64,000 nucleotides of DNA, from assembly GCA_019912545.1 (NCBI GenBank), contig JAIOIK010000198.1, forward strand, positions 6,679 to 70,678, in the 5' to 3' direction. A program made the position numbers and the translations under genes. Of this stretch, positions 7,747 through 58,430 are shown one piece after another. Source of the stretch: Ignavibacteria bacterium. Its GTDB lineage: Bacteria > Bacteroidota > Ignavibacteria > Tepidaquicellales > OLB5. The stretch's first letter is position 1. Every line of letters begins with the position of its first letter. The notes beneath the pieces are model-generated. The model was not told the origin of the DNA. It ran no database searches and saw nothing but the letters and a program-made list of their open reading frames with translations.

Positions 7747-7805
7747 GAGGAAATTAAGGTAGTGTGGTATTTTCAAACGGCCCAATTTGTTATCGCCGCC
7801 TGTAC

Positions 7806-41004: not shown

Positions 41005-42039
41005 TCATATTACAAGCATTGCATCGCCGTAACTGAAGAAACGATATTTATCCTTAACTGCTTTCTTATAAACCTTCATCACCATATCTTTATCTGCAAA
41101 TGCGCAAACCAGCATGATCATTGTTGATTGCGGCTGATGGAAATTGGTAATGAACTTATCCACTACCTTCAGTGTTTGCGGGGGATAAACGAATTTATCT
41201 GTCCACCCTTTGCCTGAACGGATGAGCCTTCCGGCAGTTGTATTGGCTTCAAGAACTCTCGCAACTGATGTTCCACAGGCTATGATCTTCTTTTTATTCT
41301 CTACTGCCCTGTTAACAGCCTCGGCAGTATAATCCGGGATCTCGAAATATTCAGAGTCCATTCTGTGTTTGGTAAGGTCTTCTACTTCTACATGACGGAA
41401 CTTACCTAAACCCACATGAAGCGTAATGGGTAAAATATTTATTCCCTTTTTATCAACTTTCCTCAAAAGTTCTTTAGAAAAATGAAGTCCGGAAGCTGCT
41501 GCTGCAACAGAACCGATATTTTCAGCAAAAACTGACTGGTAGTTTTCCCTGTCTGCATCAGTTGGCTCGCGCTTAATATATTCAGGCAGCGGGGTTTTGC
41601 CAAGCTTATCTATATATTTCTGGAAGTCACCGCGGTAATTAAATCTTACAATCCTTCCTCTTGAAGTAGTATTATCAATTACTTCACAATACAGGTTTTT
41701 GGTAATAAATATTTTGTTGCCAATTCTGACTTTTCTTGCAGGATCAACAAGAACATCCCAAATGTTTTCGTCCTGGCTAAGCTGCCTTAAAAGGAATACT
41801 TCGATCTTTGCATTGGTCTTTTCTTTTGTACCGAATAGCTTTGCAGCAAATACCTTTGAGTCATTTAAGACGAGGCAATCGCCTTCATCCATATAATCTA
41901 TTATATCTTTAAATTTTTTGTTCTCAAGTTCCTTGGTTTTTCTGTTAACCACCATCATTTTGCATTCATCACGCGGTGATTTTGGGTGCTGGGCTATAAG
42001 TGTCTTGGGTATAGAAAATTTAAAATCAGTTGATTTCAT
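41005..42039 (-). CDS. queA: S-adenosylmethionine:tRNA ribosyltransferase-isomerase
   Basis: MKSTDFKFSIPKTLIAQHP..R..CKMMVV.., AAASGLHF, TLHVGLGKF, GTSVARVLE, TNFHQPQSTMIMLVCAF. Confidence 0.95.
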   Translation of the reverse strand: MKSTDFKFSIPKTLIAQHPKSPRDECKMMVVNRKTKELENKKFKDIIDYMDEGDCLVLNDSKVFAAKLFGTKEKTNAKIEVFLLRQLSQDENIWDVLVDPARKVRIGNKIFITKNLYCEVIDNTTSRGRIVRFNYRGDFQKYIDKLGKTPLPEYIKREPTDADRENYQSVFAENIGSVAAAASGLHFSKELLRKVDKKGINILPITLHVGLGKFRHVEVEDLTKHRMDSEYFEIPDYTAEAVNRAVENKKKIIACGTSVARVLEANTTAGRLIRSGKGWTDKFVYPPQTLKVVDKFITNFHQPQSTMIMLVCAFADKDMVMKVYKKAVKDKYRFFSYGDAMLVI

Positions 42040-42053
42040 TTATGTCCTTTAAT

Positions 42054-43352
<1,299 letters not shown>

Positions 43353-43612
43353 TTAAGTACAAATATAACATACAATTGCCGGCGAAACAATTCCGTTTTT
43401 ATTGCCTTTTGTTCGTAAGTAACGTAAATATCAATTACTTAGTATATAGGCTATTTTTATCAAGGTAAAGCTTTTTTATTGTTTAACGGAATAGTTATGC
43501 TAATCGTTGTAAATGGAAAAAGGTTCTCATTTTCTGACATAGAATTCAAAATATATCCCCAGGCAGTTAAAGAGTTCTTTTCATTTTTTTTGGAAAGTTA
43601 AAATTACTGACA

Positions 43613-44050
43613 CTATGATAAAAGTTCAAGCAGTCCTTCGGGATAAACTGTCACTTTTCCGGATTCACAATCCTCAACAGAAATCCAATGAGCCTTATAC
43701 CAAATATTTTCTTCATCAACATCAATTTCAGTCATTTCGTACAATTCTTTATTTATAAACTCTCCGTCATAAACCAAAACTAATTCGTGGCAAGATTTAC
43801 CGTTATAAGAAAAAACATTCTCCAGTGTTCCCAGGTACTTGACATTTATGATTTGCTGCCCCAATTCTTCCATGATCTCTCGTCTTAAGGCATCTTCGCT
43901 TCTTTCGCCAAACTCGATCCTGCCGCCAAGCGGGCGGTAAAATTCATTCTTCTTCACTGTGTCTGTTCCCAATGCAGCCAGAAATTTATTTTCATACCTG
44001 AAAACACAGATCACAAGCGGCCTAATTTCATTTGATCCCGGTTCAGTCAT
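43613..44050 (-). CDS. NUDIX hydrolase
   Basis: Nudix box GGRIEFGERSEDALRREIMEELGQ; 145 aa. Overlaps the upstream racemase gene by 8 nt. Confidence 0.85.
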   Translation of the reverse strand: MTEPGSNEIRPLVICVFRYENKFLAALGTDTVKKNEFYRPLGGRIEFGERSEDALRREIMEELGQQIINVKYLGTLENVFSYNGKSCHELVLVYDGEFINKELYEMTEIDVDEENIWYKAHWISVEDCESGKVTVYPEGLLELLS

Positions 44051-44741
44051 TAATGCCTAGAGCAAATTTGACAATAGCATCTGCATGAACTTCGGTTGTA
44101 TCAAACACCGGAATCGGTGAATCATTTTGTTTTATGAGAAGCGGTATTTCTGAGCAGCCGAGGATCACTACTTCAGCTCCTTGTGATTGAAGTCTCTTAA
44201 TAATTTCAATATATCTGCCTCTTGTTGATTCTTTGAATATATTAAGGCCAAGTTCTTCAAAAATAGTTCTGTGAATAAAATCCATTTCATCAACTTGAGG
44301 AATAATTGTTTCGATCCCCTTTTCCTTTAATTTATCTTTGAAGAAATCTTCTGTCATCGTGATTCTCGTTCCAAGCAGGGCAACCTTTGTAATACCTTTT
44401 GATGCAATCACTGAGGCAACGGCCTCGGCGATATGAATTAGAGGTATCCTGATGGAGTTCTCAATATCGGGCGCATACTTGTGAGGGGTATTAGCACATA
44501 ATGCCAGGCATCCTGCCCCTGCCGCTTCGATCTTTCGGGCGATATCACAAAACGCATCACTAAGCCATTTAGTATTATTTTCATCTACTTTTTTCTTGAA
44601 TTCTTCAAAATTGACTGAATGAAGAATGATCTTTGCTGAATTCAGCCTTCCAAGCTTTTCACCTATTTTCTGATTTAGTAGTCTGTAATAATCAGCTGTT
44701 GAAAGCCAGCTTGTACCGCCTATTAATCCTATTGTTTTCAT
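44043..44741 (-). CDS. aspartate/glutamate racemase family protein
   Basis: IGLIGGTSWLSTADYY, LCANTPHK and ILGCSEIPLL (the two catalytic-Cys regions of Asp racemase-type enzymes). Confidence 0.85.
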   Translation of the reverse strand: MKTIGLIGGTSWLSTADYYRLLNQKIGEKLGRLNSAKIILHSVNFEEFKKKVDENNTKWLSDAFCDIARKIEAAGAGCLALCANTPHKYAPDIENSIRIPLIHIAEAVASVIASKGITKVALLGTRITMTEDFFKDKLKEKGIETIIPQVDEMDFIHRTIFEELGLNIFKESTRGRYIEIIKRLQSQGAEVVILGCSEIPLLIKQNDSPIPVFDTTEVHADAIVKFALGIND

Positions 44742-44828
44742 TTTAATAATTTATGATATGGATTATTGAAGAACAAGGGGTTACCCCAAAGGAATTTTCA
44801 ACAACCCCATGTTCGTAAAAGTAATAAT

Positions 44829-45470
44829 CTATTTAACCAAACTGATAGTCAAACCATCTGAGATTGAAACCAGAAGCGATTCAACTCCTGCGTCTTCGGC
44901 AACTTTCTTGTTATATTTAAGGATTCCCTTTGTGCTTTCATCAGGGTTTTCATCCACCACCTTGCCGAATTTGAGAGTATTATCGCATGCAATAATGCCG
45001 CCTTTATTCATTAAGCCAATAACTTTATCAAAATAATTCGAGCTGTTTTCTTTATCAGCATCAATGAATACAAAATCAAATCTCTCGTTCTGAAGTTTAT
45101 CAAGCGTTTCCAGCGCGCTGCCTAACATAAGTTCAATTTTGTTTTCCAGTCCGGCTTTTCTATAGTTATTTTTGGATTCCTCTGCATGTTTTTCTCTGAT
45201 CTCAAGCGTTGTCACTTTTCCATCATCCGGCAGAGCCCTTGCCATCCAGATAGTGCTGTAACCCGCAAGTGCCCCGATCTCAAGTACCCGCTTTGCATTG
45301 ATCATTTTAATGAGCAGATACAGAAACTTCCCGTTATCCGGGGCTATCTGTATCAGCGGGATTTTTTTTGCCTCAGAATCAATAACAATTTGCTTTAAGA
45401 GATCATCTTCTTCAACAAAAGTATCAACAATGTAATCATAAAGCTTTTCGTTTAATGGAACGCCCTTCAT
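44829..45470 (-). CDS. class I SAM-dependent O-methyltransferase (caffeoyl-CoA OMT-like)
   Basis: ..RVLEIGALAGYSTIWMARAL..FDFVFIDADKENSSNYF.. I moved the start to ATG 45468-45470 (MKGVPLNEKLYDYIV). The track extension to 45530 reads through a REP palindrome. Confidence 0.85.
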   Translation of the reverse strand: MKGVPLNEKLYDYIVDTFVEEDDLLKQIVIDSEAKKIPLIQIAPDNGKFLYLLIKMINAKRVLEIGALAGYSTIWMARALPDDGKVTTLEIREKHAEESKNNYRKAGLENKIELMLGSALETLDKLQNERFDFVFIDADKENSSNYFDKVIGLMNKGGIIACDNTLKFGKVVDENPDESTKGILKYNKKVAEDAGVESLLVSISDGLTISLVK

Positions 45471-45493
45471 ATAAAATACAACTTTATTTATTA

Positions 45494-45558
45494 GTGGCAC
45501 AGACATTCTTGTCTGTGTGAAGATCATCAAAAATCATCCACAGGCAGGAATGCCTGTG
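45494..45558. repeat. pair of convergent REP units
   Basis: GTGGCACAGACATTCTTGTCTGTG (45494-45517, identical to 12012-12035) and CACAGGCAGGAATGCCTGTG (45539-45558). Confidence 0.8.
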
Positions 45559-45573
45559 TTACCAATCATAAAC

Positions 45574-46491
45574 CTAGAATCCGCCAGCTCCAAATATAAG
45601 CGGCATATTCTTTCCGTTCATTATGACCATTTTGGAGTTATTGCTTTTTCCAAGCTCAAGAGTTGCTTCAATGCCTTTTAACTGCAAAACCTGGTCAGTA
45701 ATGCTTTGCGATACTATCCTGTTATAATCACTTATTCCCTGAGCCTCTACTCTTTTACGTTCGGCTTCCTGCTTTTCTTTCTGCAGGACATATACCATCT
45801 GCTGAGCCCTTTGCTCGGAGGCGATCTTTTCGTCTATTGCAGCGCGGACTTTCTCCGGAAGCTCAACATTTCTAAGCAATACTCTTTCAAGAATTATTCC
45901 TCTGCCGTCAAAAGCTTTTTCCAGATTTTTTGTAACATTGTTGATAAAATCTTCGCGTTTTATGGAATATATATCAGTTGCGGGAAAACCAACAGATACA
46001 TCCCTTATCGCAGTCCTTACAGCCGGTCTGACAATTTTTTCTACATAATCAGTTCCTATAGTACGGTAAACCTGGGGAGCATCACCTTCGCTGAGTCGGT
46101 ACCAAACAGTAAGATCAAGTGTAAGAGTTAAACCATCGCTTGAAAGTGTTGAAATAGCGTCATCTCCCTGCTGCTGACCCTCATCCCGCACTGAGCTCAT
46201 AGTATAAGCTTGAGTCCTGATGTCCATTTTCTCTACACTTACAAGCGGGTTAATAAAATTCAAACCGCTTTTTAACACGCCGTCCTGAACGCTGCCAAAC
46301 AATACTTGTACTCCTGCTTCACCTGCGCCAACCTGCGCTACGCATGAAAATATCACGGCTATGAATATTCCGATATAAGCAATGTTACGTACAACGCCGA
46401 AAAGTTTTGAGGTTGCAGTGTTAGTTACATTCTTCTTTAATTGTGTAACAACTATTGCAACTATAGCTAAAAAAATTATTAAGGCAATCAT
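45574..46491 (-). CDS. SPFH/band 7 (prohibitin-like) membrane protein
   Basis: N-terminal TM helices, SPFH core (..LTLTLDLTVWYRL..VRPAVRTAIRDV..) and a coiled C-terminal EQRAQQM..KEKQEAERKRVEAQG. Confidence 0.85.
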   Translation of the reverse strand: MIALIIFLAIVAIVVTQLKKNVTNTATSKLFGVVRNIAYIGIFIAVIFSCVAQVGAGEAGVQVLFGSVQDGVLKSGLNFINPLVSVEKMDIRTQAYTMSSVRDEGQQQGDDAISTLSSDGLTLTLDLTVWYRLSEGDAPQVYRTIGTDYVEKIVRPAVRTAIRDVSVGFPATDIYSIKREDFINNVTKNLEKAFDGRGIILERVLLRNVELPEKVRAAIDEKIASEQRAQQMVYVLQKEKQEAERKRVEAQGISDYNRIVSQSITDQVLQLKGIEATLELGKSNNSKMVIMNGKNMPLIFGAGGF

Positions 46492-46608
46492 AGTGATCTC
46501 CTTTAGTTAAGTTCAATAAAAAATGGATTAATATACAATATTAACCCATTTAGATTTAATAATCTCTGCAATTATTATGTGTCATACGTATCTCATGCAC
46601 ACAGATCT

Positions 46609-47403
46609 TCACAAATTCGATTCATTCGCTTTTTGCAGCACTTCAATCATATCTCTATGAATGCCCTTACCATTTGTTGCCAGTATCGGTTTATCATAAA
46701 TACTGTATTTATTACCATTAAAATCCGTAATTTTCCCCCCTGCTTCCAGGATTATTAAATAGCCTGCTGCGATATCCCACGGGTTCAGGTTTACTTCCCA
46801 AAAACCTTCAAACCTGCCGCAGGCAACATAACAGGCATCAAGTGCTGCCGAGCCGAACCTTCTTATCGGCAAGCCTTGCTTAATGAAATTCACAAAATGG
46901 TCTATACAGCGGTTTGAATTCTCTTTTGCATCATAGGGAAATCCGGTAACCAACATGCTGTCTTTAAGCATTTCAATATCACTAACCTTTATTCTCTTAT
47001 CGTTAAGATAGGCCCCTTTTCCCTTTTCGGCAAAGAATTTTTCTCCGGTTTTTGCAGAATATACCATTCCCATTACAACTACGCCTTTTATTTCAAGAGC
47101 GATCGAGACGCAGAAAATCGGAAGCGAATGTGCATAGTTCACAGTTCCATCGATCGGGTCAACTATCCACACATATTCCGATTTTTTGTGCAGGTCTCCG
47201 CCTTCTTCACCCAGTACATTGTGATCAGGGAAAGAGTTGTGAATTATCTCAATTATCTTTGCCTCGCACCGTTTATCAACTTCGGTAACAAGATCGCTGT
47301 AATTCATTTTCCTAGCTATTTCAAAATCCTTTTCGAAATACTCAAGCTGTATTTTTGCCGCTTCCTCAGCGGCCTCATTCATTACTTTTTTATATTCTTC
47401 CAT
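46609..47403 (-). CDS. inositol monophosphatase family protein (SuhB-like)
   Basis: ..LGEEGG.., WIVDPIDGTVNYAH, ..WDIAAG.. motifs. Confidence 0.9.
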   Translation of the reverse strand: MEEYKKVMNEAAEEAAKIQLEYFEKDFEIARKMNYSDLVTEVDKRCEAKIIEIIHNSFPDHNVLGEEGGDLHKKSEYVWIVDPIDGTVNYAHSLPIFCVSIALEIKGVVVMGMVYSAKTGEKFFAEKGKGAYLNDKRIKVSDIEMLKDSMLVTGFPYDAKENSNRCIDHFVNFIKQGLPIRRFGSAALDACYVACGRFEGFWEVNLNPWDIAAGYLIILEAGGKITDFNGNKYSIYDKPILATNGKGIHRDMIEVLQKANESNL

Positions 47404-47488
47404 AAGTATGTTTGTGAAATCATTTCAAAAACTAAAAAAGCATTCCGCCTAGCAGCAGAATGCTTTTAATTTACTTCAAATTATTTTC

Positions 47489-49324
47489 TTACTGCTTAAC
47501 TTCTTCCTGTTTATCGGCATCCTGTATAACATCATCGATCTTGAAATCAACTTCGTCTTTCAGTTCTGCAGGTGTTTTAGTTCTTTCTACCACATCAGCA
47601 AGTGTGAATTTCTTCAGTCCGAATTTCTTCACATAATCATCAACTTCTTTCTCACCTTTGTCTTTCAGGTACTCCAGAACAGATAGAACTATCTTTTTGG
47701 ATTCTTTATCGAACTCAATCACCTTTGCATTAAGTTCTTCGCCAGCTTCATAAAGCTCAGCGAAGTTCTTTACCGGCGATACCGATAGCTGTGAAGCCGG
47801 AATGAATCCGTCAACAAGCGTTGGCAGTTCAACAATTATTCCTTTTTCAATAGCTTTCATCATCTTGCATTTGCATTCAGTGCCTGCTTTGTATTCATCT
47901 GCTAGCTTATCCCATGGATTTTCTGTAAGCTGTTTATGGCCAAGTGCAATTCTCTGGTTTTCTACGTCAATTCCAAGAATAGTTACGTCAATTTCCTGCC
48001 CAAGCTGTACAAAATCCTCAATGTTGAAGATCTTCTTAGTCCATGAAAGGTCTGAAATATGAATAAGTCCGTCAACACCTTCTTCAAGCTCAACAAAGAC
48101 GCCGAAGTTGGTAATATTGCAGACTTTTCCCTTATGCTGTGAATTGACCGGGAAACGCTCAAGCAGTGACTGCCATGGATTAGGTGTAAGCTGCTTTATT
48201 CCAAGAGAAAGCTTCTTTTCGTTCTTATCAAGGCTGAGTATTATTGCTTCAATAACCTGTCCCATGGTAACTACCTGGGTTGGATTGGTTATGTGCTGAG
48301 TCCATGACATTTCAGAAATATGAATCAATCCTTCAATTCCTTTTTCAATTTCTATGAATGCGCCGTAATCGGTAATTGATACAACCTTTCCGGAAACCTT
48401 ATCGCCGATCTTGAGCTTTTCTTCAATGTTTTCCCATGGATGCGGCTGCAACTGCTTTAAGCCAAGAGTAACGCGTTTCTTTTCTTTATCATATTCAAGT
48501 ACCTTAACTTCAATTGGAGCATCAAGATTAACGACATCCGAAGGATGATTGATCCTGCCCCATGAAAGGTCTGTAATATGGATAAGCCCGTCAACTCCGC
48601 CAAGATCAACAAATACGCCGAAATCGGTAATAGCTTTAACGGTTGCCTGCAGGATTTGTCCCTGTTCAAGAGTTGTAAGAAGCTTCTCTCTCTGCTCTGA
48701 CATTGATTCTTCAACAAGAACCTTATGCGATACTATAATGTTTTCGTTGGGGTGATTGATCTTCAGGATCTTGAAGTCCATCATTTTATTTACATATACA
48801 TCATAATCACGGATAGGCTTAGTATCGATCTGTGAGCCGGGAAGGAATGCATTAATTCCGCCTAGATCAACAACAAATCCGCCTTTGATCCTTCTTACAC
48901 ATTTACCCTGTATAATTGTATCGTTCTCTTTGGCAGAAGTGATCTTCTCCCAATTCCTTATTATATCCGCGCGCTTGCGTGAAAGCACCAGCTGTCCCTC
49001 GCGGTCTTCAATTTTCTCTACAAATATTTCAAGCTCGTCGCCAATCTTAATGTTATCCGGATCGGGAAATTCATCTATTGATACTCTTCCGTCTGATTTG
49101 AAACCAATATCAATTAAAACATCGTTGCCGCTGATAGCAACAACTTTACCTTTAGCTATCTCATTTTCTTTGATAACATTAAAGGTCTTTTCATAAAGCT
49201 CAATATACTTTTTGAATTCTTCTTCGCTGTAATCTTTGGCTACAAAATCTTTGGTCTTTATGACCGGTGGCTTAACTTCTTCAGTCGTTGCATTAGCATT
49301 TGCTGTCTCGTTTGGTGATGTCAT
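47489..49324 (-). CDS. rpsA: 30S ribosomal protein S1
   Basis: 611 aa with six S1 repeats (recurrent G.V..I..FG.FV.L..G..GL.HIS.. units). Confidence 0.95.
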   Translation of the reverse strand: MTSPNETANANATTEEVKPPVIKTKDFVAKDYSEEEFKKYIELYEKTFNVIKENEIAKGKVVAISGNDVLIDIGFKSDGRVSIDEFPDPDNIKIGDELEIFVEKIEDREGQLVLSRKRADIIRNWEKITSAKENDTIIQGKCVRRIKGGFVVDLGGINAFLPGSQIDTKPIRDYDVYVNKMMDFKILKINHPNENIIVSHKVLVEESMSEQREKLLTTLEQGQILQATVKAITDFGVFVDLGGVDGLIHITDLSWGRINHPSDVVNLDAPIEVKVLEYDKEKKRVTLGLKQLQPHPWENIEEKLKIGDKVSGKVVSITDYGAFIEIEKGIEGLIHISEMSWTQHITNPTQVVTMGQVIEAIILSLDKNEKKLSLGIKQLTPNPWQSLLERFPVNSQHKGKVCNITNFGVFVELEEGVDGLIHISDLSWTKKIFNIEDFVQLGQEIDVTILGIDVENQRIALGHKQLTENPWDKLADEYKAGTECKCKMMKAIEKGIIVELPTLVDGFIPASQLSVSPVKNFAELYEAGEELNAKVIEFDKESKKIVLSVLEYLKDKGEKEVDDYVKKFGLKKFTLADVVERTKTPAELKDEVDFKIDDVIQDADKQEEVKQ

Positions 49325-49598
49325 TCGTTAATAAAACTCCGTTATTAAATATTAAATTATTAGATTCCCCCTGCGCAATAACAAGCCGCCGGGAGCGTTA
49401 GTTAAAAATCCACTCCATTAAGTATAGAAAATTAGTGGAAAAGAATACAAATATGCTAAAAATTTGAGAGAATCACAATGGACTGTTTAGAGAACAACAC
49501 TTGAAATTAAGTCTTTGTTTATTAATATTTTGAATTGAGTAATTTTTTGTACAAAATTTGCATATTTTGGATAAGGTTAGACACTTATTGACTGATAA

Positions 49599-50684
49599 AT
49601 GCCGATAAAAATCAAAGCAAAAGACGTAGAAAGATGGGCTGAAGGTATGGCAAGTCAAAGCGAATTGCCAGACCTTATAAGACAATTGATAGAGGGTACA
49701 GTTGATAAAGACCAAATTGTTGATATTGAATTTCCAGCTTATGATTCTGTACAAACACCTGGACCTGACGGGAGACTCAATTGCAAAAAAGGAAACCGTT
49801 ATATACCTAAAGGACATTCGATATGGGAATTGAGTAATCAGAGCGGAAACTTAGCTAAACAAAATGGCAAAATAGACAAAGACTATAAAGAAAGAACAAA
49901 AAAGCCAATTAATTATGATATCAATAAGGCAACTTTTGTATTTGTAACTGGACATCGTTGCACTTCAAAACATAAATGGAAAGAAAAGATTGTCAAAGAA
50001 CAAAGGAACAACAAAAATAAAAAGAAGATCTGGAAAAGCATTAAACTTTATGATTCAATAGATCTAGAGCACTGGTTAGGATACGTAAGTTATGTTACAT
50101 CTATAAAAATAGCAAAACAATTTTTGCGAATTGTACCACAAGGTCTAGAAACACTTGATACATATGGAGAAATGTGGTGTTATAATAAGAATTTTAGATT
50201 GACACCTGAGCTTATACTGACAAACAGAAAAAATGAACTAGATAAATTAAGGAATTGGTTAAATGATACCCCAAATAAAATTAAGATTCTTACAAACAAT
50301 TGTAAAGAAGCCGTGGTATTCATATGGGCAGTAATAAAAACAATGCCACTGGATGAACAAAATAGTTACTTCAACAAGTGTCTTATAATCAATAATGAAA
50401 TTGATTTAAAAGATATTATACACAGCAATCAACAAAGTATTTTGATTTACACAGGTGAAGATAGTGTCGCAATTGATTATGCTACAAAAAAGCATCATAT
50501 TCTAATACCCAAACTGATAGACAATCAAAAGAATGACAATTTAGGCAATTTCATTAAACTTAAACCTATAGAAGAAAATTCTTTTGAGAAAGCCATGATT
50601 AATTTAGGATTAACTAAAAATAGAATTAAATTACTTTACAAAAAATGTCAAGGAGATTTAAGTAAATTGAAAGAAATTAATTAA
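49599..50684 (+). CDS. hypothetical protein (361 aa); short paralog of the N-terminal third of the downstream 1272-aa protein
   Basis: First ATG after in-frame TGA TAA; AT-rich coding. Collinear motif matches with the next gene: LP.LIR.LI, FPA.D, G.DG.L, YIP.G.S.WE, KATFVFVT, WK.I..YD..DLE.WL, RKNEL....WL, GL(T/S)....G.LS.L. No family recognised. Confidence 0.7.
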   Translation: MPIKIKAKDVERWAEGMASQSELPDLIRQLIEGTVDKDQIVDIEFPAYDSVQTPGPDGRLNCKKGNRYIPKGHSIWELSNQSGNLAKQNGKIDKDYKERTKKPINYDINKATFVFVTGHRCTSKHKWKEKIVKEQRNNKNKKKIWKSIKLYDSIDLEHWLGYVSYVTSIKIAKQFLRIVPQGLETLDTYGEMWCYNKNFRLTPELILTNRKNELDKLRNWLNDTPNKIKILTNNCKEAVVFIWAVIKTMPLDEQNSYFNKCLIINNEIDLKDIIHSNQQSILIYTGEDSVAIDYATKKHHILIPKLIDNQKNDNLGNFIKLKPIEENSFEKAMINLGLTKNRIKLLYKKCQGDLSKLKEIN

Positions 50685-50714
50685 GAAACTTTGAAATTCT
50701 AACATGCAAAAATT

Positions 50715-53700
50715 ATGAAATGGATTAATTCTTCTGATTTAAAATTTTGGGCTATTAAGCAAAATAGAAATTGCCAGCAATACTTGCCTTTACTTATTCG
50801 TTGGTTAATTACTGAAACCGGCAATAACTTTATTACCAAAAAAATTTTCCCCGCCGGGGATGCAATTCATACAGCCGGCTGGGATGGTATATTAGAAACT
50901 AATGCTTCAAGTGAATATATACCTCATGGTATGTCATTCTGGGAATTCGGTTGTGCTGAAAGGATAAAACACCAGGCAGAAAATAACTATACTAAGAGAA
51001 CTAGTGAGCTATTAAGCACTGTAGAAAGAAAGAAAGCTACATTCGTATTTGTAACACCTAGAATATGGAATTACAAACAAAAAGACAAATGGGAAAATGA
51101 AAAGAATTTAGAAAAAAGATGGAAGCAAATAATCGTTTATGATGGCAGAGATTTAGAAGAATGGTTAGAAAATGCACCTGTTACCTCTTCGAAATTTGCG
51201 AGAAAAATTTTAGGTAATTATCCGGATAAAGTACAACCCTTAGAAGACTTTTGGGAAGAATGGTCTATTTGTCAAAAGTATAAGATAAATGAAAACTTAG
51301 TACTTGCAGGTAGAAAAAATGAACTTGAGAATATTTCAAAATGGCTAAGTGGTCCTCCAAGTAGATATATCTTAAAAGCATTGACCAGAGAAGAAGCACT
51401 CGCATTTTTATGTGCTTGTATAATGCATAGTAATGAGAAAGCTAACTATCTATCTAAGAGCTTAATAATAAAAGATAATTACGAATTCACGGAATTAATC
51501 AAAGAGCATACAGGTAAGATATTAATAAACTACTTCGGTAATTTTGACGCTGTTGATCTAGCAATAAATAGAGGAAATCATGTCTTTATTCCGTTAGCCC
51601 CTGATGCAACAAGCATAGAAGCTAATAATAATCTTCAAACTTTAGGTCTAGAAGATTTAGTTACTGAATTAAAAAAAATGGGATTAAGTGATGCTGATGC
51701 AAGACATTTTTCAAAAGATTCTGGTAGAAGTCTATCTGTTTTAAGAAGATTGTTATTTGGTAAAATGAAACAGCCCGAATGGTCCAAAAGGCAAAATGTA
51801 CGAGATATTATTCCATTATTGTTTATACAAAGATGGGATGATTCACAAACAAGGTCTGACAAAAGAAAAATAAAATCTAAATTTGATGACAAGAAAGTAA
51901 TTAAAAAAATTTCAGGCTTAAAATACAAAAACTTTCTTGCAAAAATTACCGAATATAAGAATATAGAAGATCCTCCAATTTATCAAATAGGCTTTAAATG
52001 GCGACTAGTTTCACCTATAGATGCTTGGTATGCAATAGCACCATATGTTACATTTCAACATCTTGATATATTCAAAAAAATCGTTATTGATGTATTAGTT
52101 GAACCTGATCCTGAATTTGAATTAGATGAAAACGAGAGATATAGAGCTGAATTATTAGGAAAATACAGAAAATACTCAGAATGGATTAGGGAAGGTATTT
52201 TGCAAAGTCTTGTTTTAATTGCGATATATGGAGATAGAATATCAAGTTTACAAGGTAATCATCAAGAATGGGTTGACAATATAATTTTAGAGTTAATAGA
52301 TAATATTGATGATAAAAAGTGGTTTTCATTATCTAATATTCTACCTCAAATAGCTGAAGCTTCACCAGTTTCCTTTTTAAATAGTATCGAAAATTCATTG
52401 AGAACCAATGAAAAATCCATTATGATTTTATTTAGGGAGGGAACAGATGCTTTCTTTTCCAGGTGTAATCATGCTGGTTTACTTTGGGCACTAGAATCCC
52501 TTGCATGGAAGTCTGAATATATTATACAAGTTACAAGAATACTAGGGCAATTATGCAAATTAGCACCTGCCAGTAGGTGGGGAAATACTCCAATATCTAC
52601 TTTGCGAGGGATATTTCTTGCTTGGCTGCCTTATACAACAGCAAATTTGAGTGAAAGATTTTCTGCACTCGATGTTTTAATCAAAGAAAATGAAGATGTA
52701 GCTGTTAAATTGCTGTTAAATCTACTACCTAAACCACATGATATAGGTCACCCAACATATAAAGCCAGATGGAGATGGTTCTCTGAATTGAACGAGGCTA
52801 GAGTCACAATAAAAGAAATGCACGATACTTATTCAGGTGTATTGGATAGACTTCTAAAAATAGCTGGTAATAATGGATTATTGCTCGCTAAAATATTACC
52901 TAGTTTCGACGATTTGTCACTGCAGAAGGATAGAGATAAGTTGTTTATTCATTTAAAATCAATTTTAGGTCAAGTAACAAGTGGTAAAAAAGAGTTATGG
53001 AACAAACTTAGAGAGATGATTTCTCGACATAAAACATATAAAGATGCCGCTTGGATTTTACCGGCTATTGAAATAAAGAGACTTGAAGAACTTTATGAAG
53101 AATTTAGATTAGATGATACTATTCAGAATTACAAATGGTTATTTGATGACCATTATCCTAATCTTTTAGATGGGGATAGGAAAAATTATAAAGAATATGA
53201 AAAAAAGATTGAAGATGCCCGAATAGATGCAATTGGGAAAATAATAATGGCAGAAAATGAGGATAAAATAATTGAATTAGCAACCACTGTCAAGTTTCCT
53301 TACTTTTTGGGTTTATCTTTAGCAAAAACCAACTTCGTTAATTCTGAATTAGAAGCAAAAATTATTTCCAAATCAATTGATAATGAAAACTTAATTAACT
53401 TTTCAAGAGGCTATTATGATGGTATGAGAAAAAAACAAGTAAATTGGGTTTTTGAAAGAATGACATATTTCCAAAATAATGAATCGAAACAGGAAATTAT
53501 CGTAAACTTCCTTACCTCTTTAGATTTTGGTAGACCTACTTGGGATTTAGTAGAACAATTTTCAAAAGAAATCCAAAATTTATATTGGGCTAAATGTTAT
53601 GTTTGGTTTCATGAAATTCAGGGTAAAGATAAGAAGTTTGCAATAAGAAATTTGTTGCAAGTAAATAGGTTTATAACTTTAATTGATACCGTTAGTTATC

Positions 53701-54533
53701 ATAGTGAGAATATCCCATCTGAATTGATTGCGGATATTTTAGAAAAAGCCATAACAATTAAATCCAATGATGAAAATAAAAACAGAATTGATCCTCACAA
53801 TGTTGCTGAACTTTTTAAAGTTTTAGATAAAAATGGTTATAATAATACTCCAAATTTAGTAAAATTAGAATGGTTTTATATTGAAATTTTATCTGATGAT
53901 TTTTGGGGTAGACCACCGAAATTATTACATAATGATATGAGTTTAAACGCTAAGTCATTTGTGGATGTTATTAAAATGATTTTTAAACCAAAAGATGACG
54001 AAGAATTACAAAAAGAAGAAACAAAAGGTTTAACCGAAAATCAAATAATCAACAGATATCGTGCGGCCTATGATTTATTAAGTTCATTCAAAACAATCCC
54101 GGGGAAAGATAAAAATGGTAAAATAGATTATCAAACCTTGTTAAGTTGGGTCAAAAATGTCATAAAATTAAGCAAAAAATCAAAAAGAGAATATCATGGC
54201 AAATATTTCATTGGTGAACTTTTTGCAAAAGGAATAGAAAAAGATTCTTTACCACTTGAAGAAATATGTCGGGTAATAGAAGAACTTAACAGCCAAGAAT
54301 TAAAACAAGGTTTCCAAATTGCAAACAGCAATAGAAGGGGTTTAACAACAAGAAATCCTTTTGAAGGTGGTGTGCAAGAGAAAAGCTTATCTGAACATTA
54401 TTATCAGCTTGCTAAAGAAATCGAATTAAAATATCCATTCACCTCAAAAATGTATAAGGATATTGCAAAAACTTATGAACTTGACGCAAAAAGAGAAGAT
54501 GATAGAGCTACAGAAGAAGAGTTAGAATATTAG
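50715..54533 (+). CDS. hypothetical 1272-aa protein: N-terminal module shared with the upstream gene, then a ~925-aa predicted helical-repeat region with an acidic tail
   Basis: Long uninterrupted ORF 30 nt after the previous gene. No signal peptide or TM segment. I found no Walker A, HNH or other catalytic signature by eye. The C-terminal two thirds are rich in amphipathic-helix-like segments (ILQSLVLIAIYGD, ILPQIAEASPVSFLNSIENSL, HAGLLWALESLAWKSEY..) and end ..AKREDDRATEEELEY. Confidence 0.8.
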   Translation: MKWINSSDLKFWAIKQNRNCQQYLPLLIRWLITETGNNFITKKIFPAGDAIHTAGWDGILETNASSEYIPHGMSFWEFGCAERIKHQAENNYTKRTSELLSTVERKKATFVFVTPRIWNYKQKDKWENEKNLEKRWKQIIVYDGRDLEEWLENAPVTSSKFARKILGNYPDKVQPLEDFWEEWSICQKYKINENLVLAGRKNELENISKWLSGPPSRYILKALTREEALAFLCACIMHSNEKANYLSKSLIIKDNYEFTELIKEHTGKILINYFGNFDAVDLAINRGNHVFIPLAPDATSIEANNNLQTLGLEDLVTELKKMGLSDADARHFSKDSGRSLSVLRRLLFGKMKQPEWSKRQNVRDIIPLLFIQRWDDSQTRSDKRKIKSKFDDKKVIKKISGLKYKNFLAKITEYKNIEDPPIYQIGFKWRLVSPIDAWYAIAPYVTFQHLDIFKKIVIDVLVEPDPEFELDENERYRAELLGKYRKYSEWIREGILQSLVLIAIYGDRISSLQGNHQEWVDNIILELIDNIDDKKWFSLSNILPQIAEASPVSFLNSIENSLRTNEKSIMILFREGTDAFFSRCNHAGLLWALESLAWKSEYIIQVTRILGQLCKLAPASRWGNTPISTLRGIFLAWLPYTTANLSERFSALDVLIKENEDVAVKLLLNLLPKPHDIGHPTYKARWRWFSELNEARVTIKEMHDTYSGVLDRLLKIAGNNGLLLAKILPSFDDLSLQKDRDKLFIHLKSILGQVTSGKKELWNKLREMISRHKTYKDAAWILPAIEIKRLEELYEEFRLDDTIQNYKWLFDDHYPNLLDGDRKNYKEYEKKIEDARIDAIGKIIMAENEDKIIELATTVKFPYFLGLSLAKTNFVNSELEAKIISKSIDNENLINFSRGYYDGMRKKQVNWVFERMTYFQNNESKQEIIVNFLTSLDFGRPTWDLVEQFSKEIQNLYWAKCYVWFHEIQGKDKKFAIRNLLQVNRFITLIDTVSYHSENIPSELIADILEKAITIKSNDENKNRIDPHNVAELFKVLDKNGYNNTPNLVKLEWFYIEILSDDFWGRPPKLLHNDMSLNAKSFVDVIKMIFKPKDDEELQKEETKGLTENQIINRYRAAYDLLSSFKTIPGKDKNGKIDYQTLLSWVKNVIKLSKKSKREYHGKYFIGELFAKGIEKDSLPLEEICRVIEELNSQELKQGFQIANSNRRGLTTRNPFEGGVQEKSLSEHYYQLAKEIELKYPFTSKMYKDIAKTYELDAKREDDRATEEELEY

Positions 54534-56536
54534 TTTGTTTCAACCCAAATACCATCCTCTTTCATGAGTTCTATCAGCCTTTCAAGGGCATCGGCATATG
54601 GGATCCCCCTTTCGATAACATCTTTTCCCCTGTAAAGGCTCACCCAATTAGGTCCGCTGCCAACAAAACCGTAATCAGCATCAGCCATTTCACCCGGTCC
54701 GTTAACTATACAGCCCATGATCGCTATTTTAACTCCCTTTAAGTGGTCTGTGCGCTTCTTTATCATAGCAGTTGTGACCTGCAGGTCAAACTGCGTCCTG
54801 CCGCAAGAGGGGCATGAAATATACTCGGTCTTTGATATTCTTGTCCTTGTAGCCTGTAGTACACCAAAGCTAATGCGGTTAACAATTTCCAGGTTGGTTT
54901 CAGGAGATTCTATCCAGATTCCGTCACCCATTCCGTCAATAAATAATGAACCAACCTCAGTTGCACTAAAGAGAGTAAGGTCTTCATCATCAAGTAAATC
55001 ATAATTTCTTTTTAAAATTACGGGAGTCTCAAGTCCGAGTTCCAATAATTCTATTACTATCCTGCGCTCTTCTGCCGCTGCATGTCTATTGTTAGTATTC
55101 AGTATTATGACGCAGAATTTATCAGCGCTGATTGTATCAAGCAGTTCACCCGAAATATCATCAATTGTTAATGAAAGAAAATTTATCCGGAAAGATTTTC
55201 TTTCTGCATTTAAGTATTCTTCCGGAGTAAACAGCGGGAATGATTCTGACTTTTCTTTCAAGTCTTTCCAGTAAGCGTAATCATATATGATTTTCAGTGT
55301 TCCAGGCAGTTTGTATGGAATGGTATTCTTTCCAAGGTAAATAAAATCTGCTGCCATATCGCCAATGTTCCATTTATCAAGCTTAGGGTCGTAGCCATAT
55401 GAAATTCCGCTTAATGCTTCGGGTTTTTGAATTGCATTCACATCCGGAGAAAGTATAACTACGGGCACATGATGATTGCCTATTTTATCGGTCTCATAAG
55501 TTTTTCTGCGCAGGTAACTGAATGGATCATAAGGAATTTCGGATTGCGGATTTTCGATCTCTGATTGAACAGCTGCAACCGGATTATTATAATCAGAAAT
55601 CCGATTCCCGATATCCGCAATTTGTTTATGTCCGTTAATATCATTGTACTTTGCAACGATCCTTTTACACACGGGAATTTCGAACTCAGGGTCTTCGGTA
55701 AGTGATACCCTTATTGTATCGCCAAGCCCATCTTCAAGAAGAGTGCCAATACCAACTGCTGATTTTATCCTTCCGTCTTCGCCGTCACCGGCTTCGGTAA
55801 CGCCAAGGTGCAGCGGGTAATTCATGCCTTCTTCTTCCATCTTGCTGACAAGCAGTCTATACGCCTGTACCATAACCTGAGTATTGCTTGCCTTCATGGA
55901 TAGTATTAACTCGTGGTAATTCATGTCGCGGCAAATCCGAACAAACTCCAGCGCTGATTCAACCATGCCAAGCGGAGTATCACCAAAGCGGTTCATGATC
56001 CTGTCGGATAGTGATCCGTGGTTTGTGCCAATCCTCATAGCCGTGCCGTACTCTTTGCAGACCTTCACAAGCGGCGCAAATTCTTCGTAAATCCTATCAA
56101 GCTCTTCATTATACATCTCATCGGTAAAGCTGAATACTTTGAATCTCTTCTTATCTGCATAATTGCCCGGGTTAACCCGCACTTTTTCTACAATACGGGC
56201 AGCCAGTTCAGCAGCATCCGGTTTGAAGTGAATATCTGCAACAATAGGCGTATTATAGCCGCGTGCTCTAAGCTCCTGTTTAATATTCTCAAGATTCTTC
56301 GCCTCTTTCATAGCAGGTGCAGTAATTCTTACCAGCTCGCTTCCGGCTTCGATCATACGGATTGATTGTTCAACCGTGCCTTTTGTATCCATTGTATCGG
56401 TCGTAGTCATTGATTGCACACGGATGGGATTATCTCCCCCGATGCCAACATTGCCAACCATAACAACACGGGTCTTATATCTTGAGTATTTTGCTAAGGA
56501 GTTACAATATTTTTTGGTGATTGTTTGTGTTTCCAA
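54530..56536 (-). CDS. ispG: 4-hydroxy-3-methylbut-2-en-1-yl diphosphate synthase (long form with insert domain)
   Basis: ..VGNVGIGGDNPIRVQSMT.., ..VRVNPGN.., C-terminal [4Fe-4S] cysteines (ISCPSCGRT .. MGCIVNGPGE). TTG start as in the track. Confidence 0.95.
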   Translation of the reverse strand: METQTITKKYCNSLAKYSRYKTRVVMVGNVGIGGDNPIRVQSMTTTDTMDTKGTVEQSIRMIEAGSELVRITAPAMKEAKNLENIKQELRARGYNTPIVADIHFKPDAAELAARIVEKVRVNPGNYADKKRFKVFSFTDEMYNEELDRIYEEFAPLVKVCKEYGTAMRIGTNHGSLSDRIMNRFGDTPLGMVESALEFVRICRDMNYHELILSMKASNTQVMVQAYRLLVSKMEEEGMNYPLHLGVTEAGDGEDGRIKSAVGIGTLLEDGLGDTIRVSLTEDPEFEIPVCKRIVAKYNDINGHKQIADIGNRISDYNNPVAAVQSEIENPQSEIPYDPFSYLRRKTYETDKIGNHHVPVVILSPDVNAIQKPEALSGISYGYDPKLDKWNIGDMAADFIYLGKNTIPYKLPGTLKIIYDYAYWKDLKEKSESFPLFTPEEYLNAERKSFRINFLSLTIDDISGELLDTISADKFCVIILNTNNRHAAAEERRIVIELLELGLETPVILKRNYDLLDDEDLTLFSATEVGSLFIDGMGDGIWIESPETNLEIVNRISFGVLQATRTRISKTEYISCPSCGRTQFDLQVTTAMIKKRTDHLKGVKIAIMGCIVNGPGEMADADYGFVGSGPNWVSLYRGKDVIERGIPYADALERLIELMKEDGIWVETN

Positions 56537-56537
56537 T

Positions 56538-56714
56538 TTACTTTTTCAGCCATCCTCTGGATAATGTCACAACTTTTTCATGATCAATCAGATTATTTTC
56601 ATTCTCGCTTTCAATCCACGCCTCCTTTAGATCTTTTTTTTGCTCGTCCGAAAGGTCATCCCAAAAATCATCTGTCCTCACACTATAAATTTCATTTACT
56701 TCGGTCTTAATCAA
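56538..56714 (-). CDS. candidate 58-aa small protein (below the track cutoff), antitoxin/addiction-module-component-like C-terminus
   Basis: Minus-strand frame: (TTG)M-IKTEVNEIYSVRTDDFWDDLSDEQKKDLKEAWIESENENNLIDHEKVVTLSRGWLKK-TAA. The TTG overlaps the rhomboid stop (cat TTG A). The stop lies 2 nt before the ispG start. It fills an otherwise empty 174-nt gap in a same-strand gene string. Confidence 0.4.
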   Translation of the reverse strand: MIKTEVNEIYSVRTDDFWDDLSDEQKKDLKEAWIESENENNLIDHEKVVTLSRGWLKK

Positions 56715-57661
56715 TGGATTTTTTTACTTGCTTCAAAAAGTATTTTCTTTTCTTCCTCACTCAGGTTCTGGTATCCATCTTTACCAATTTTATCAAGTAT
56801 TTCATCAACTTTTTCCTGTGTTATTTCGCCATTGCCGTCTTTTGTGTAATAGTCAGCGTCAGTTACATCCTTTTCAGAGCCTGTGTTATATTTTTCGTAA
56901 TACTTATTCCGGTAAATATTAGTTGGCCGGTTTGATGTCATCTTTGGCTTCTTATCAAACCTGAAAAGATCACTCACATTATTCTTTGTTAAAAGCAGGT
57001 AAACAAATCCAATCAGTCCGCCGCCCAAGTGCGCCAGATGCGCAACACCGGAATCCCTGCCGACAGAAAACAGCTCAATGACCATATAGATTATCACGAA
57101 ATACTTGGCTTTTATAGGAAACAGGAAGTAAAGAAATATTTCCCTATTTGGGAAAAGCATACCGAATGCAACGAGTACTCCGTAAATAGAGCCTGATGCC
57201 CCGACTGTCGGAAGCTGCAATGTTGTAAAGAGCGGAGTGAGAAGTACAGTCGAAAGACCCGCGCCAACGCCGCACATAACATAGTATGCCAGGAATTTCT
57301 TTGAACCCCAGATATTTTCAAGCTCCATGCCAAACATCCACAAGGCGAGCATGTTGAGAAATAAGTGCCAGAATCCACCGTGCATAAATAAATATGTTAA
57401 CAACTGCCACGGGTAGAACGGAAAAACTGTACTTCCTATCGGATTTAATGCAAAATATTTTATGAAAAATGCCGAGAGTGGTACGCCGCTGACGCTAAAT
57501 CCTGCAAAGATGAAATGCTGAACTGTAAAAATGGCAACATTAGAAATCAGCAGGTATTTTATGACGGGAGGAAATAAAGAAAATCCCCCGAACATTGATG
57601 GCCGGTTGAATCTAAGCCGCTGGTTACTATACCTGTCTTTTTGTGTGTTAAATATTCCCAT
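56711..57661 (-). CDS. rhomboid family intramembrane serine protease
   Basis: ..LTYLFMHGGFWHLFLNM.., catalytic GASGSIYGV, ..AHLAHLGG..; six to seven TM helices; soluble charged C-terminal tail. Confidence 0.9.
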   Translation of the reverse strand: MGIFNTQKDRYSNQRLRFNRPSMFGGFSLFPPVIKYLLISNVAIFTVQHFIFAGFSVSGVPLSAFFIKYFALNPIGSTVFPFYPWQLLTYLFMHGGFWHLFLNMLALWMFGMELENIWGSKKFLAYYVMCGVGAGLSTVLLTPLFTTLQLPTVGASGSIYGVLVAFGMLFPNREIFLYFLFPIKAKYFVIIYMVIELFSVGRDSGVAHLAHLGGGLIGFVYLLLTKNNVSDLFRFDKKPKMTSNRPTNIYRNKYYEKYNTGSEKDVTDADYYTKDGNGEITQEKVDEILDKIGKDGYQNLSEEEKKILFEASKKIH

Positions 57662-57698
57662 TTATATTGTTTTTCCTAAAACCCAAAACTCAAAAAAC

Positions 57699-58430
57699 TC
57701 ACTTTTCCAGATGTTTAACTTCATCTTCAGCGCGTTTAAGGTCCTCGGGGAAGTCAATTTCCATACTTTTATACTCTGAAACATCAATGGCATACATGGC
57801 GTTCCCCATGTCATAAAGCTCCTGGAACGACGCCTCGTAGAATTCATTCACATTGTTCTCACGCATGATCTTGCGATCCAGCACGTCTCCCAGCTTACTG
57901 AAGAAATCAAGCGAAAACCTTTCAATTCCTATAGATTCGCCGAAACACTCTGCGGGGGCTAAATGTTTGCCAATATGCTCAATTTTGTTAGCACTATCAA
58001 TTATAACTTTAATCTCCTCTTCGCCCAGTTTATGCGCAGAATTCACAGCAAGTGAATTGGCATGTTCAGACTTCAAAAGCTTTGAAATTATGCGATAATC
58101 GAACAATATGTCACTATCAAGAAGCAATGAATCCCCTTTTACATAGTCTTTGGTCATCCAGAGCGAGTAGCTGTTATTGTTATTCTCATAATCGGCATTT
58201 GTAAGATACAATATATTGAGCTTTGGATAAGTTTCTGCAATGAAATCCTTTATCATATTCTCTCTGTAACCCGTAACTACAATGAATTCATTTATCCCGT
58301 TTTTGAGGATATTATTGATCGTCATTTCAAGCAGTGTTTTACTCCCTGCTTTTAATAGACATTTTGGTGTAGTATCGGTGAGCGGCCTAAGCCTTTTTGC
58401 GAGTCCCGCCGCGAGTATTATTGCCTGCAT
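57699..58430 (-). CDS. sugar-phosphate/phosphocholine nucleotidyltransferase family protein
   Basis: MQAIILAAGLAKRLRPLTDTTPKCLLK (G-x-G-x-R-L signature of NTP_transferase fold); 243 aa. Confidence 0.85.
   Translation of the reverse strand: MQAIILAAGLAKRLRPLTDTTPKCLLKAGSKTLLEMTINNILKNGINEFIVVTGYRENMIKDFIAETYPKLNILYLTNADYENNNNSYSLWMTKDYVKGDSLLLDSDILFDYRIISKLLKSEHANSLAVNSAHKLGEEEIKVIIDSANKIEHIGKHLAPAECFGESIGIERFSLDFFSKLGDVLDRKIMRENNVNEFYEASFQELYDMGNAMYAIDVSEYKSMEIDFPEDLKRAEDEVKHLEK

Follow-up and report, generated by a model that had tools for sequence, protein, structure and literature searches.

We analysed a stretch of 64,000 nucleotides (nt) from an Ignavibacteria bacterium (assembly GCA_019912545.1, contig JAIOIK010000198.1, positions 6,679 to 70,678 of the forward strand), hereafter called the window and numbered from its first letter, with a focus on two adjacent genes, A and B, located between rpsA and ispG. 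Judging from composition and from comparison with relatives, the segment ~49,500-54,530 is a horizontally acquired accessory cassette at a variable spot and carries two paralogs arranged as an operon. B belongs to a large family distributed over most bacterial phyla, and its predicted structure combines a restriction-endonuclease-like domain, a P-loop-less domain resembling AAA+ proteins and nucleotide-binding oligomerisation domains (NODs), a probable winged helix and a long α-solenoid. On the basis of these models and of the genomic settings of homologs, we give a probability of about 0.5 to the reading that B is a conflict/defence protein of the effector-oligomerisation module-repeat sensor type, which would act independently of nucleotides in a manner resembling Avs and NOD-like receptors (NLRs) or DSR2, with A as a helper paralog.

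Accessory cassette between rpsA and ispG

The following features have been assigned to the cassette and its edges (aa, amino acids; ORF, open reading frame; AF2, AlphaFold2).

49325-49495, minus strand: upstream (leader) region of rpsA, conserved in relatives, outside the island and marking its left boundary
49500-49598, plus strand: left end of the insert, presumed to hold the promoter of gene A, AT-rich and unalignable to the empty site
49599-50684, plus strand: gene A, 361 aa (from the ORF list)
49599-50132, plus strand: endonuclease-like domain of A, residues 1-~178
50133-50681, plus strand: P-loop-less AAA+-like domain of A, with lid
50685-50714, plus strand: A-B spacer of 30 nt, similarly short (6-44 nt) in other A+B pairs
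50715-54533, plus strand: gene B, 1272 aa (from the ORF list)
50715-51248, plus strand: restriction-endonuclease-like domain of B, residues 1-178, putative effector (AF2)
51249-51764, plus strand: AAA+/NOD-like α/β domain of B with lid, residues 179-350, presumed oligomerisation module (Foldseek)
51765-52034, plus strand: winged-helix-like domain of B, residues 351-440 (AF2 topology only)
52035-54530, plus strand: all-α solenoid of B (HEAT/ARM-like), residues 441-1272, ~830 aa, putative ligand sensor (AF2)
54530-54533, strand not assigned: right edge of the insert, where the stop codon of B overlaps that of the convergent ispG by 4 nt; the same junction is present in the relatives' loci L004 and L171

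A and B are the sole plus-strand genes within an 18-kb minus-strand run, all other substantial ORFs of 40220-58430 being on the minus strand. An earlier description made from the sequence alone (hereafter the original prediction) had reported two plus-strand ORFs 30 nt apart between minus-strand rpsA and ispG; its coordinates are exact, and domain matches confirmed the flanks as ribosomal protein S1 with six S1 domains (E 2.5e-85) and IspG/GcpE (E 7e-124). The genes lying farther out (inositol monophosphatase, SPFH protein, O-methyltransferase, rhomboid protease and nucleotidyl transferase) form a housekeeping neighbourhood. The 30-nt spacing is consistent with an operon, and no terminator-like site was found between A and B.

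At 30.5%, the G+C content of 49500-54530 is lower than the 39.1% found elsewhere in the window (z = -6.8 when set against 195 further 5-kb windows), and after normalisation for base composition the tetranucleotide usage deviates as well (z = 7.8). A and B have G+C fractions at third codon positions (GC3) of 0.24 and 0.21, respectively, whereas 26 other ORFs of the window have values of 0.28-0.44. The original prediction was therefore right in calling the island AT-rich, but the value of about 50% that it gave for a line of ispG is a local peak only; the whole gene has 42.4%, and the true contrast is ~30 versus 39%.

For the comparison with relatives, 80 metagenomic loci were retrieved via ispG and the content between ispG and rpsA was inspected. 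At one locus (L091; ispG 78% and S1 93% identical) the site is empty, with 241 bp separating the two genes. An M1 aminopeptidase gene on the housekeeping strand occupies the interval in L092, L095, L098, L099, L100 and L103, accompanied in L100 by a restriction-modification (R-M) system on the opposite strand (BsaWI-like endonuclease and methyltransferase); unknown genes are present in L092 and L097, and such cargo comprises a 472-aa gene and a set of 246- and 174-aa genes. L004 and L171 carry the A+B pair at the same site as the window, with B 81% identical to window B, and across ispG from the pair there is a MjaI-type R-M system in L171 and a ParE-like toxin gene in L004. The interval is a cargo hotspot in this clade. 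We rejected the possibility of a neighbour gene relocated within the window, the relatives' M1 peptidase being missing from all 64 kb, and also that of a conserved core locus, on account of the empty site, the other cargo and the presence of the pair at other loci (L006, L174, L175 and L177).

About 170 nt upstream of rpsA can be aligned among the window, the empty-site L091 and the island-bearing L004, and similarity is lost past ~49,495. Since this leader is conserved in empty and occupied sites alike, the left edge of the insert is placed near 49,495-49,500. Downstream of this edge a TTG...AAAATTTG motif at ~49535-49562, spotted by eye, might serve as a Bacteroidota-style promoter; a sigma-70 promoter scan gave sites no commoner than in shuffled sequence, the sigma-70 model being ill-suited to this phylum.

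No tRNA was found in the window by a tRNA scan, no integrase is encoded among the genes flanking the island, and the search for flanking direct repeats gave only A/B paralogous motifs and chance-level matches. The integrase, tRNA target and direct repeats of a classical integrase-mediated island are accordingly absent, as the original prediction had stated, and the cassette shows the deviant composition and the presence/absence among close relatives that characterise a horizontally acquired segment. Three results would have spoken against that prediction, namely a composition like that of the genome, a pair conserved at this locus throughout the clade, and a confident match to a housekeeping family, and none of them was obtained: the island deviates in the 5-kb window, tetranucleotide and GC3 comparisons, the pair is not fixed at the locus (empty in L091, with other cargo including an R-M system elsewhere), and profile and structure searches gave no confident match to a housekeeping family.

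Predicted architecture of gene B

Structures were predicted with AF2 on alignments of 114-118 sequences, giving a predicted local distance difference test score (pLDDT) of 94.8 and a predicted template modelling score of 0.90 for residues 1-360, and a pLDDT of 92.6 for residues 341-1272. According to AF2 and Foldseek, and at fold level only, the order effector, NOD with winged helix, repeat sensor is present in B.

The core of the N-terminal domain (residues ~17-113) is modelled as α-β-β-β-α-β (helices, H, and strands, E: H17-35, E40-44, E58-62, E72-78, H84-97 and E108-113). Nowhere in the family is conservation higher than in this domain (mean column identity 0.49), and all of 66 sequences share W12, L31, D57, G58, P70, W76, E77, R95 and W126. 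D57 (50883-50885; in GWDG) is located at the start of β2 and E77 (50943-50945; in WE.G) within β3, while K87 (50973-50975), conserved in at least 90%, sits on the helix after β3. Compared with the PD-(D/E)xK signature, the model has the expected topology and the two acidic residues D57 and E77 do not vary, with the lysine at +2 replaced by G79. In whole-module Foldseek searches this domain gave weak matches to a phage 'restriction endonuclease' (E 0.028, probability 0.89), an endonuclease I-like protein (probability 0.38) and MUS81 (probability 0.30). The 66 isolated N-domains had no Pfam match (scattered chance matches only at E ≤ 10), and sequence and profile searches gave no PDB match. Since the structural matches specific to this domain are weak, we treat it as a putative nuclease.

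For residues ~190-350 the best Foldseek matches are replication factor C (RFC) subunits, RuvB, ClpB and Apaf-1 (probability 0.9-1.0, E ~7e-3, template modelling (TM) score ~0.32, identity 10-12%). At the position of the P-loop there is a link of 3-4 residues between β1 and the helix, with the pattern V-Q-A-x-[ST]-[RK]-[ED]-E; the Walker A motif [AG]xxxxGK[ST] occurs there in none of the 217 full-length members (9 sporadic matches were found elsewhere), and no conserved acidic residue corresponding to Walker B follows the β3-equivalent strand. No Pfam or PADLOC match of B to NACHT, NB-ARC, AAA_16 or Avs models was obtained even at E ≤ 10, the 66 isolated middle regions gave only scattered chance matches to Pfam at the same threshold, and the sole match of the middle-region profile in PDB was Hsp104 (E 0.03). 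The possibility that B is an active ATPase of the AAA+ or STAND (signal transduction ATPases with numerous domains) type was therefore rejected, the P-loop being present in no full-length member.

Residues 351-440 probably form a winged helix, with the modelled elements (fragment numbering) H22-31, E33-35, E38-40, E46-48, H52-60, H64-75, E82-85 and E88-91. The remaining ~830 aa are modelled as an α-solenoid, matched by FANCI, karyopherins, CAND1 and SF3B1 in Foldseek (E 6e-5 to 1e-3) at a TM score of ~0.2, which indicates generic solenoid likeness. Conservation within the solenoid is found at residues ~570-630 (LLWALE...NRPINSLR) and in the C-terminal ~160 aa, and variability in B peaks at residues ~690-1050.

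Size and distribution of the B family

Residues 1-1270 of B match positions 1-1254 of the 1258 in PHROG 18693 (E 4.4e-154), a family of unknown function. Neither A nor B has a match in Pfam or NCBIfam, no SIR2 match was found for either in Pfam or PADLOC, and B has no sequence relative in PDB, whether the search, by sequence or by profile, started from the whole protein, its N-domain or its middle region. Against the 5,027 models of PADLOC-DB v2.0.0 (2023), B is unmatched and A gave only GajB at E 0.0084 over 50 residues, which is noise. A literature search by accession, PHROG identifier and architecture gave no description of the B family, and source annotations of homologs read 'hypothetical' or, for forms fused to a helix-turn-helix (HTH) domain, 'HTH transcriptional regulator' or 'HigA antitoxin'.

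More than 717 homologs are present in a database clustered at 90%, and the full-length ones (~1,255-1,283 aa) align with 100% coverage. Searches with the short-form profile gave 2,828 clusters at 50% identity for E ≤ 1e-3 and 2,046 for E ≤ 1e-10. In a collection of one genome per species there are at least 591 confirmed matches, corresponding to roughly 0.3% of species and spread over most bacterial phyla, and the groups represented include Bacteroidota, Ignavibacteria, Pseudomonadota, Bacillota, Actinomycetota, Chloroflexota, Cyanobacteria, Planctomycetota, Verrucomicrobiota, Chlamydiae, Saccharibacteria and Gracilibacteria.

B homologs are normally solitary: in 80 genomic loci there is one gene with the N-terminal module (N-module) per locus, and no recurrent downstream neighbour was found. 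A conserved partner gene for the whole family was rejected on these grounds. The evolutionary unit is a single large gene, and the two-gene form is a rare lineage-specific variant.

Read with genetic code 11, several genomic copies of the B gene (L015, L074, L075 and L028) contain stops or frameshifts. Those of L015, L074 and L075 look like pseudogenes, while the interruption in L028, a Gracilibacteria contig, is probably an artefact of the alternative genetic code of this group.

Gene A as a truncated paralog

A aligns to residues 1-~310 of B with 33% identity (E 1e-38) and matches the first ~343 positions of the PHROG 18693 profile (E 8e-24). In its extent it equals residues 1-~350 of B, comprising the endonuclease-like domain and the pseudo-AAA+ domain with lid and ending at the start of the probable winged helix, and it retains the family-invariant residues G55, D57, G58, W76, E77, W126 and R200. 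The ratio of nonsynonymous to synonymous substitution rates (dN/dS) is 0.12-0.15 for A, 0.135-0.154 for B and 0.05-0.10 for ispG. A evolves faster than B, the identity between the window and L004 being 58% for A and 76% for the equivalent part of B.

At least 7 A+B pairs have been found at 5 or more loci, and every located A-type gene is directly upstream of a B-type gene. Besides the shared ispG-rpsA site, the pairs are located at the following sites.

L006: at methylmalonyl-CoA mutase/EamA, with B 51% identical to window B
L174: at purD, with a B gene truncated where the contig ends
L175: near an N6 methyltransferase gene, with B 54% identical to window B
L177: at AlaDH, with a more divergent short form and B 43% identical to window B

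L176 carries a homolog at 46% identity and has no partner gene. The monophyletic A-types branch in the same pattern as their B partners, with at least 6 pairs co-diverging. Close A-type proteins are few: 4 were found in a word-indexed database, an exhaustive search gave a few more short forms, and short-form clusters number roughly 3-6 among ~2,800. Because A is under purifying selection, keeps the invariant residues and co-diverges with B, we regard it as a maintained and co-evolving partner, and the possibility of a pseudogene or decaying duplicate was rejected.

These results bear on several claims of the original prediction. A is indeed the short paralog of the giant B, and the helical-repeat C-terminus that it had proposed for B corresponds to the α-solenoid of the AF2 model. 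Its comparison with sensor/effector partners did not hold, A being a copy of the effector and pseudo-NOD module of B. Its view that neither protein belongs to a recognisable family or carries a known signature stands as far as Pfam, NCBIfam and PADLOC are concerned, but the predicted structure contains endonuclease-like, P-loop-less AAA+/NOD-like, probable winged-helix and α-solenoid parts. The proposal of an undescribed two-gene system is retained for a foreign island from an undescribed family and has to be amended in that the family is normally a one-gene family, with the pair as a rare variant. The defence-like reading agrees with the defence, toxin-antitoxin (TA) and mobile-element neighbourhoods of homologs described below, the defence function itself being an extrapolation from them and from the architecture.

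Two further observations concern the history of the pair. A second class of ~350-aa short N-module proteins (L177 4284-5339, followed by 5346-7757, and P0127, P0129 and P0133) is ~31% identical to A and to the B N-module, and its member in L177 lies 6 nt upstream of a B-type gene; the class may have arisen through a separate duplication or in the same ancient event as A. The synonymous divergence (dS) between the window and L004 is ~2.0 for A (saturated, like that of ispG at 1.6-2.3) versus 0.67 for B, and it falls along B from 5' to 3' (1.36, 0.98 and 0.55), with GC3 equal in A and B. This pattern suggests that the 3' two-thirds of B may have been swapped between lineages later than the divergence of A and the flanks.

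Genomic neighbourhoods of homologs

One B homolog is located directly downstream of hsdM-hsdS-hsdR-YgjP, another is inside an element with a serine recombinase and TraG, and one more is near a second type I R-M system and DUF6602. Neighbours were tallied over 258 ORFs within ±2 genes of B homologs at ~70 loci. AbiEi/AbiEii genes are next to B homologs at 8 upstream and 2 downstream loci, phage integrases account for 6 ORFs and Fic/SoFic for 3, and resolvase, N6 methyltransferase, nSTAND3 and DUF3800 were found twice each. A type I methyltransferase is also among the neighbours, and the single cases include BsobI, the YhcG PDDEXK nuclease, HipA, ResIII, Tn3 transposase, AbiH, AbiL, RloB, SIR2, IetA, DRT (defence-associated reverse transcriptase) and GajB-like helicases. 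Three plasmid settings have been found for B homologs: next to a retron-like reverse transcriptase that is accompanied by SLATT and a Shedu fragment, flanked by two RES-Xre TA pairs with SIR2, Abi and AbiEii genes nearby, and following HTH-ImmA/IrrE-PDDEXK genes.

An abiEii-abiEi pair is located ~1-2 kb upstream of B homologs at 8-10 loci (L031, L042, L045, L046, L048, L053, L060, L062 and L066), divergent from B where both genes are resolved, and most of these B homologs have an XRE-type HTH domain. Their B proteins are mutually 47-83% identical, with 31-34% for L066, and abiEii-abiEi plus B may form a conserved three-gene cassette.

Proposed function and comparison with known systems

We infer nuclease activity, ligand sensing, oligomerisation, an A-B interaction and a defence phenotype, the defence role being drawn from context and architecture. 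In the proposed mechanism, the solenoid would bind an invader-derived ligand, and this binding would relieve autoinhibition, or drive a conformational change or assembly via the pseudo-NOD/winged-helix module. The N-terminal nuclease-like domains would then become active on nucleic acid, and A would probably assemble with B via the pseudo-NOD that both have, serving either as a regulator or as an auxiliary effector.

Among known systems, the Avs and other bacterial NLR-like STAND proteins (Avs1-5 and bNACHT) have a similar build in one polypeptide, with an N-terminal effector, a NOD-type α/β domain with lid and winged helix, and C-terminal helical repeats. They share with the B family a patchy, mobile distribution in defence islands, and Apaf-1 and AAA+/STAND folds are among the Foldseek matches of B. 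The B family differs from them in having neither Walker A nor Walker B and no Avs, NACHT, NB-ARC or AAA_16 match, in an effector without sequence relatives in Pfam, and in the truncated paralogous partner gene of one subclade. Since Walker A and B are missing, the nucleoside triphosphate switch that defines STAND proteins would be unusable, and since there is neither a P-loop nor a significant match to a nuclease family, we regard B as a variant of the effector-NOD-sensor design and not as a member of Avs.

Because B has lost the motifs for nucleotide binding, its closer functional analogue is DSR2 (defence-associated sirtuin 2), which is also the best one for activation without nucleotides. 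DSR2 is reported to be likewise a large single-gene protein with no ATPase, having an N-terminal enzymatic effector, a middle domain and a C-terminal α-solenoid, and this solenoid binds the phage tail tube protein (PMC11087589, PMC11850899). The B effector is, in contrast, endonuclease-like with no SIR2 match, the middle of B has an AAA+-like fold, and there is no sequence similarity between the two.

For the parts of B, the best structural matches of residues ~190-350 are clamp-loader subunits, a group that includes P-loop-less AAA+ modules such as δ/δ' and RFC5-type subunits. Several clamp-loader-type AAA+ folds serve assembly and not ATP hydrolysis. Their context and partner domains are entirely unlike those of B, and the likeness is one of fold only (TM ~0.32, 10-12% identity). 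With PD-(D/E)xK effectors (the Mrr/Cap4 type of Avs and of cyclic-oligonucleotide-based antiphage signalling systems, CBASS), the modelled N-domain shares the αβββαβ core, the invariant Asp at the start of β2, the invariant Glu in β3 and the N-terminal position in a sensor-type protein; it differs in the motif GWDG...WE(F/x)G, with Gly at the canonical Lys and K87 on the following helix as a candidate, in the lack of a match by hidden Markov models, and in the weakness of its structural matches. The A+B arrangement resembles that of plant NLR receptors (nucleotide-binding leucine-rich repeat proteins), in which genes for a full-length receptor and a sensor-less paralog are paired. Likewise, a full-length receptor-like B stands beside a co-evolving paralog with effector and NOD and without the sensor; this would be analogy without homology to sensor/helper pairs, the A-B interaction being a presumed one.

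A bolder and rather doubtful form of the defence reading takes B as a new and widespread class of immune receptor, with an NLR/STAND build, a NOD without nucleotide binding, a novel endonuclease-like effector and A as a co-evolving helper or guard. With such a NOD, activation would occur by purely ligand-driven oligomerisation of a pseudo-ATPase scaffold. If B is a defence system, ~2,800 clusters across nearly all bacterial phyla gain a function, including those of the candidate phyla radiation, Chlamydiae, rhizobial symbiosis plasmids and Shewanella conjugative plasmids, and the effector-NOD-sensor immune design would be workable without the nucleotide switch that is held central to STAND/NLR signalling. 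The A+B variant provides a natural system for studying how a receptor of full length is regulated or amplified by a truncated paralog. Whatever its function, this is a large 'dark' family, and its high-confidence predicted structures, candidate catalytic residues (D57, E77 and K87) and cultivable hosts make it directly testable. Homologs in tractable hosts include those of Shewanella baltica plasmid pS19502 (WP_012197948), Rhizobium tropici (WP_004118204) and Adhaeribacter (WP_182411419).

Several points weigh against a defence role as formulated here. The nuclease call is based on the topology, on a pair of invariant acidic residues and on Foldseek matches that are weak (E ≥ 0.03), with G79 in place of the canonical (D/E)xK lysine, and the AAA+ likeness is at fold level only (TM ~0.32). 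B is unmatched by any of the 5,027 PADLOC models or any curated family, and a single weak phage match was obtained despite the PHROG membership. The strongly conserved segments of the solenoid suggest a conserved partner, possibly a host factor, and independent HTH fusions could point to a regulatory or DNA-bound role instead of invader sensing. Many homologs are located among ordinary metabolic genes, as is the pair of the window, and the neighbour counts are raw numbers without a background set, the AbiE-linked loci being not fully independent.

Competing explanations

The most serious competitor, which we consider improbable, regards the cassette as a selfish addiction or maintenance module or as a DNA-bound regulator of mobile elements, functioning in stabilisation, exclusion or transcriptional control with A as a modulator. 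B would bind DNA via the HTH domain of many homologs and via the winged helix and endonuclease-like domain of all. N-terminal HTH domains of at least three types were found in 26 of the 64 full-length genomic homologs, as XRE (in Proteobacteria), HigA-like and MerR/excisionase-like forms that were fused independently. They occupy the first ~70-140 codons of many B homologs (L030-L088 and the plasmid matches H3-H21), and they account for the names given to these 1,350-aa proteins by the Prokaryotic Genome Annotation Pipeline, which labels plasmid copies 'HTH transcriptional regulator' or 'HigA family addiction module antitoxin'. Homologs often adjoin TA modules (AbiE, RES-Xre, HipA, Fic and ParE) and partition genes, and 24 plasmids carry a B homolog, of which 11 are conjugative. 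The fusions fit autoregulation, yet they are compatible with a DNA-bound, addiction or regulatory role as well. HTH fusions are, however, also common as autoregulators of defence genes, and A and B of the window as well as most Bacteroidota and Ignavibacteria homologs have no HTH domain. A ~830-aa solenoid with a variable centre in an effector-NOD-sensor order is unusual in TA and regulator proteins, and chromosomal copies exist far from plasmid functions. A type II TA operon has a small unrelated antitoxin upstream, usually DNA-binding, whereas A is paralogous to the first 350 residues of B and lacks a DNA-binding antitoxin fold.

A second competitor, to which we give still less weight, is that the cassette is phage or mobile-element cargo serving the element itself as an anti-defence or DNA-processing factor, the island being an element remnant and not host defence. 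The full-length match to PHROG 18693, the homologs within integrative/conjugative elements and on plasmids, and the foreign composition of the island agree with this explanation. Among 50,697 phage records, however, there is only one weak partial match, no other phage or mobile-element genes surround the insert in the window, and several lineages maintain the pairs at chromosomal sites by purifying selection; prophages and plasmids typically carry defence genes in any case.

We strongly disfavour an ordinary rare cellular pair of unusual composition, for example a FANCI-, condensin- or karyopherin-like scaffold for DNA repair or chromatin with A as a decaying duplicate. In its favour, FANCI, CAND1, karyopherins and condensin HEAT subunits are the top Foldseek matches of the solenoid, the flanks are housekeeping genes and no mobility genes are beside the insert. 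Against it, the solenoid matches are generic (TM ~0.2), the family is patchily spread over roughly 0.3% of species yet most phyla, the site is empty in one relative and has alternative cargo in others, the same A+B pair is found at different loci, and A has a dN/dS of 0.12-0.15, keeps the invariant residues and co-diverges with B.

Other observations in the window

The ~170-nt stretch upstream of rpsA (49325-49495, minus strand) is strongly conserved though the relatives differ farther upstream, with the pattern GCATATTTGTAGTCTTTTCCAC...TAACGCTCC..GC.GCT...GGGGAAT, and it may represent a leader or an autoregulatory element of S1; a search of 47-57 kb against Rfam gave no match at the gathering threshold. 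A 114-aa antisense ORF (49473-49817, minus strand) overlaps the start of A, has no family match and is probably spurious. The largest ORF of the window encodes 1786 aa (12716-18076, minus strand).

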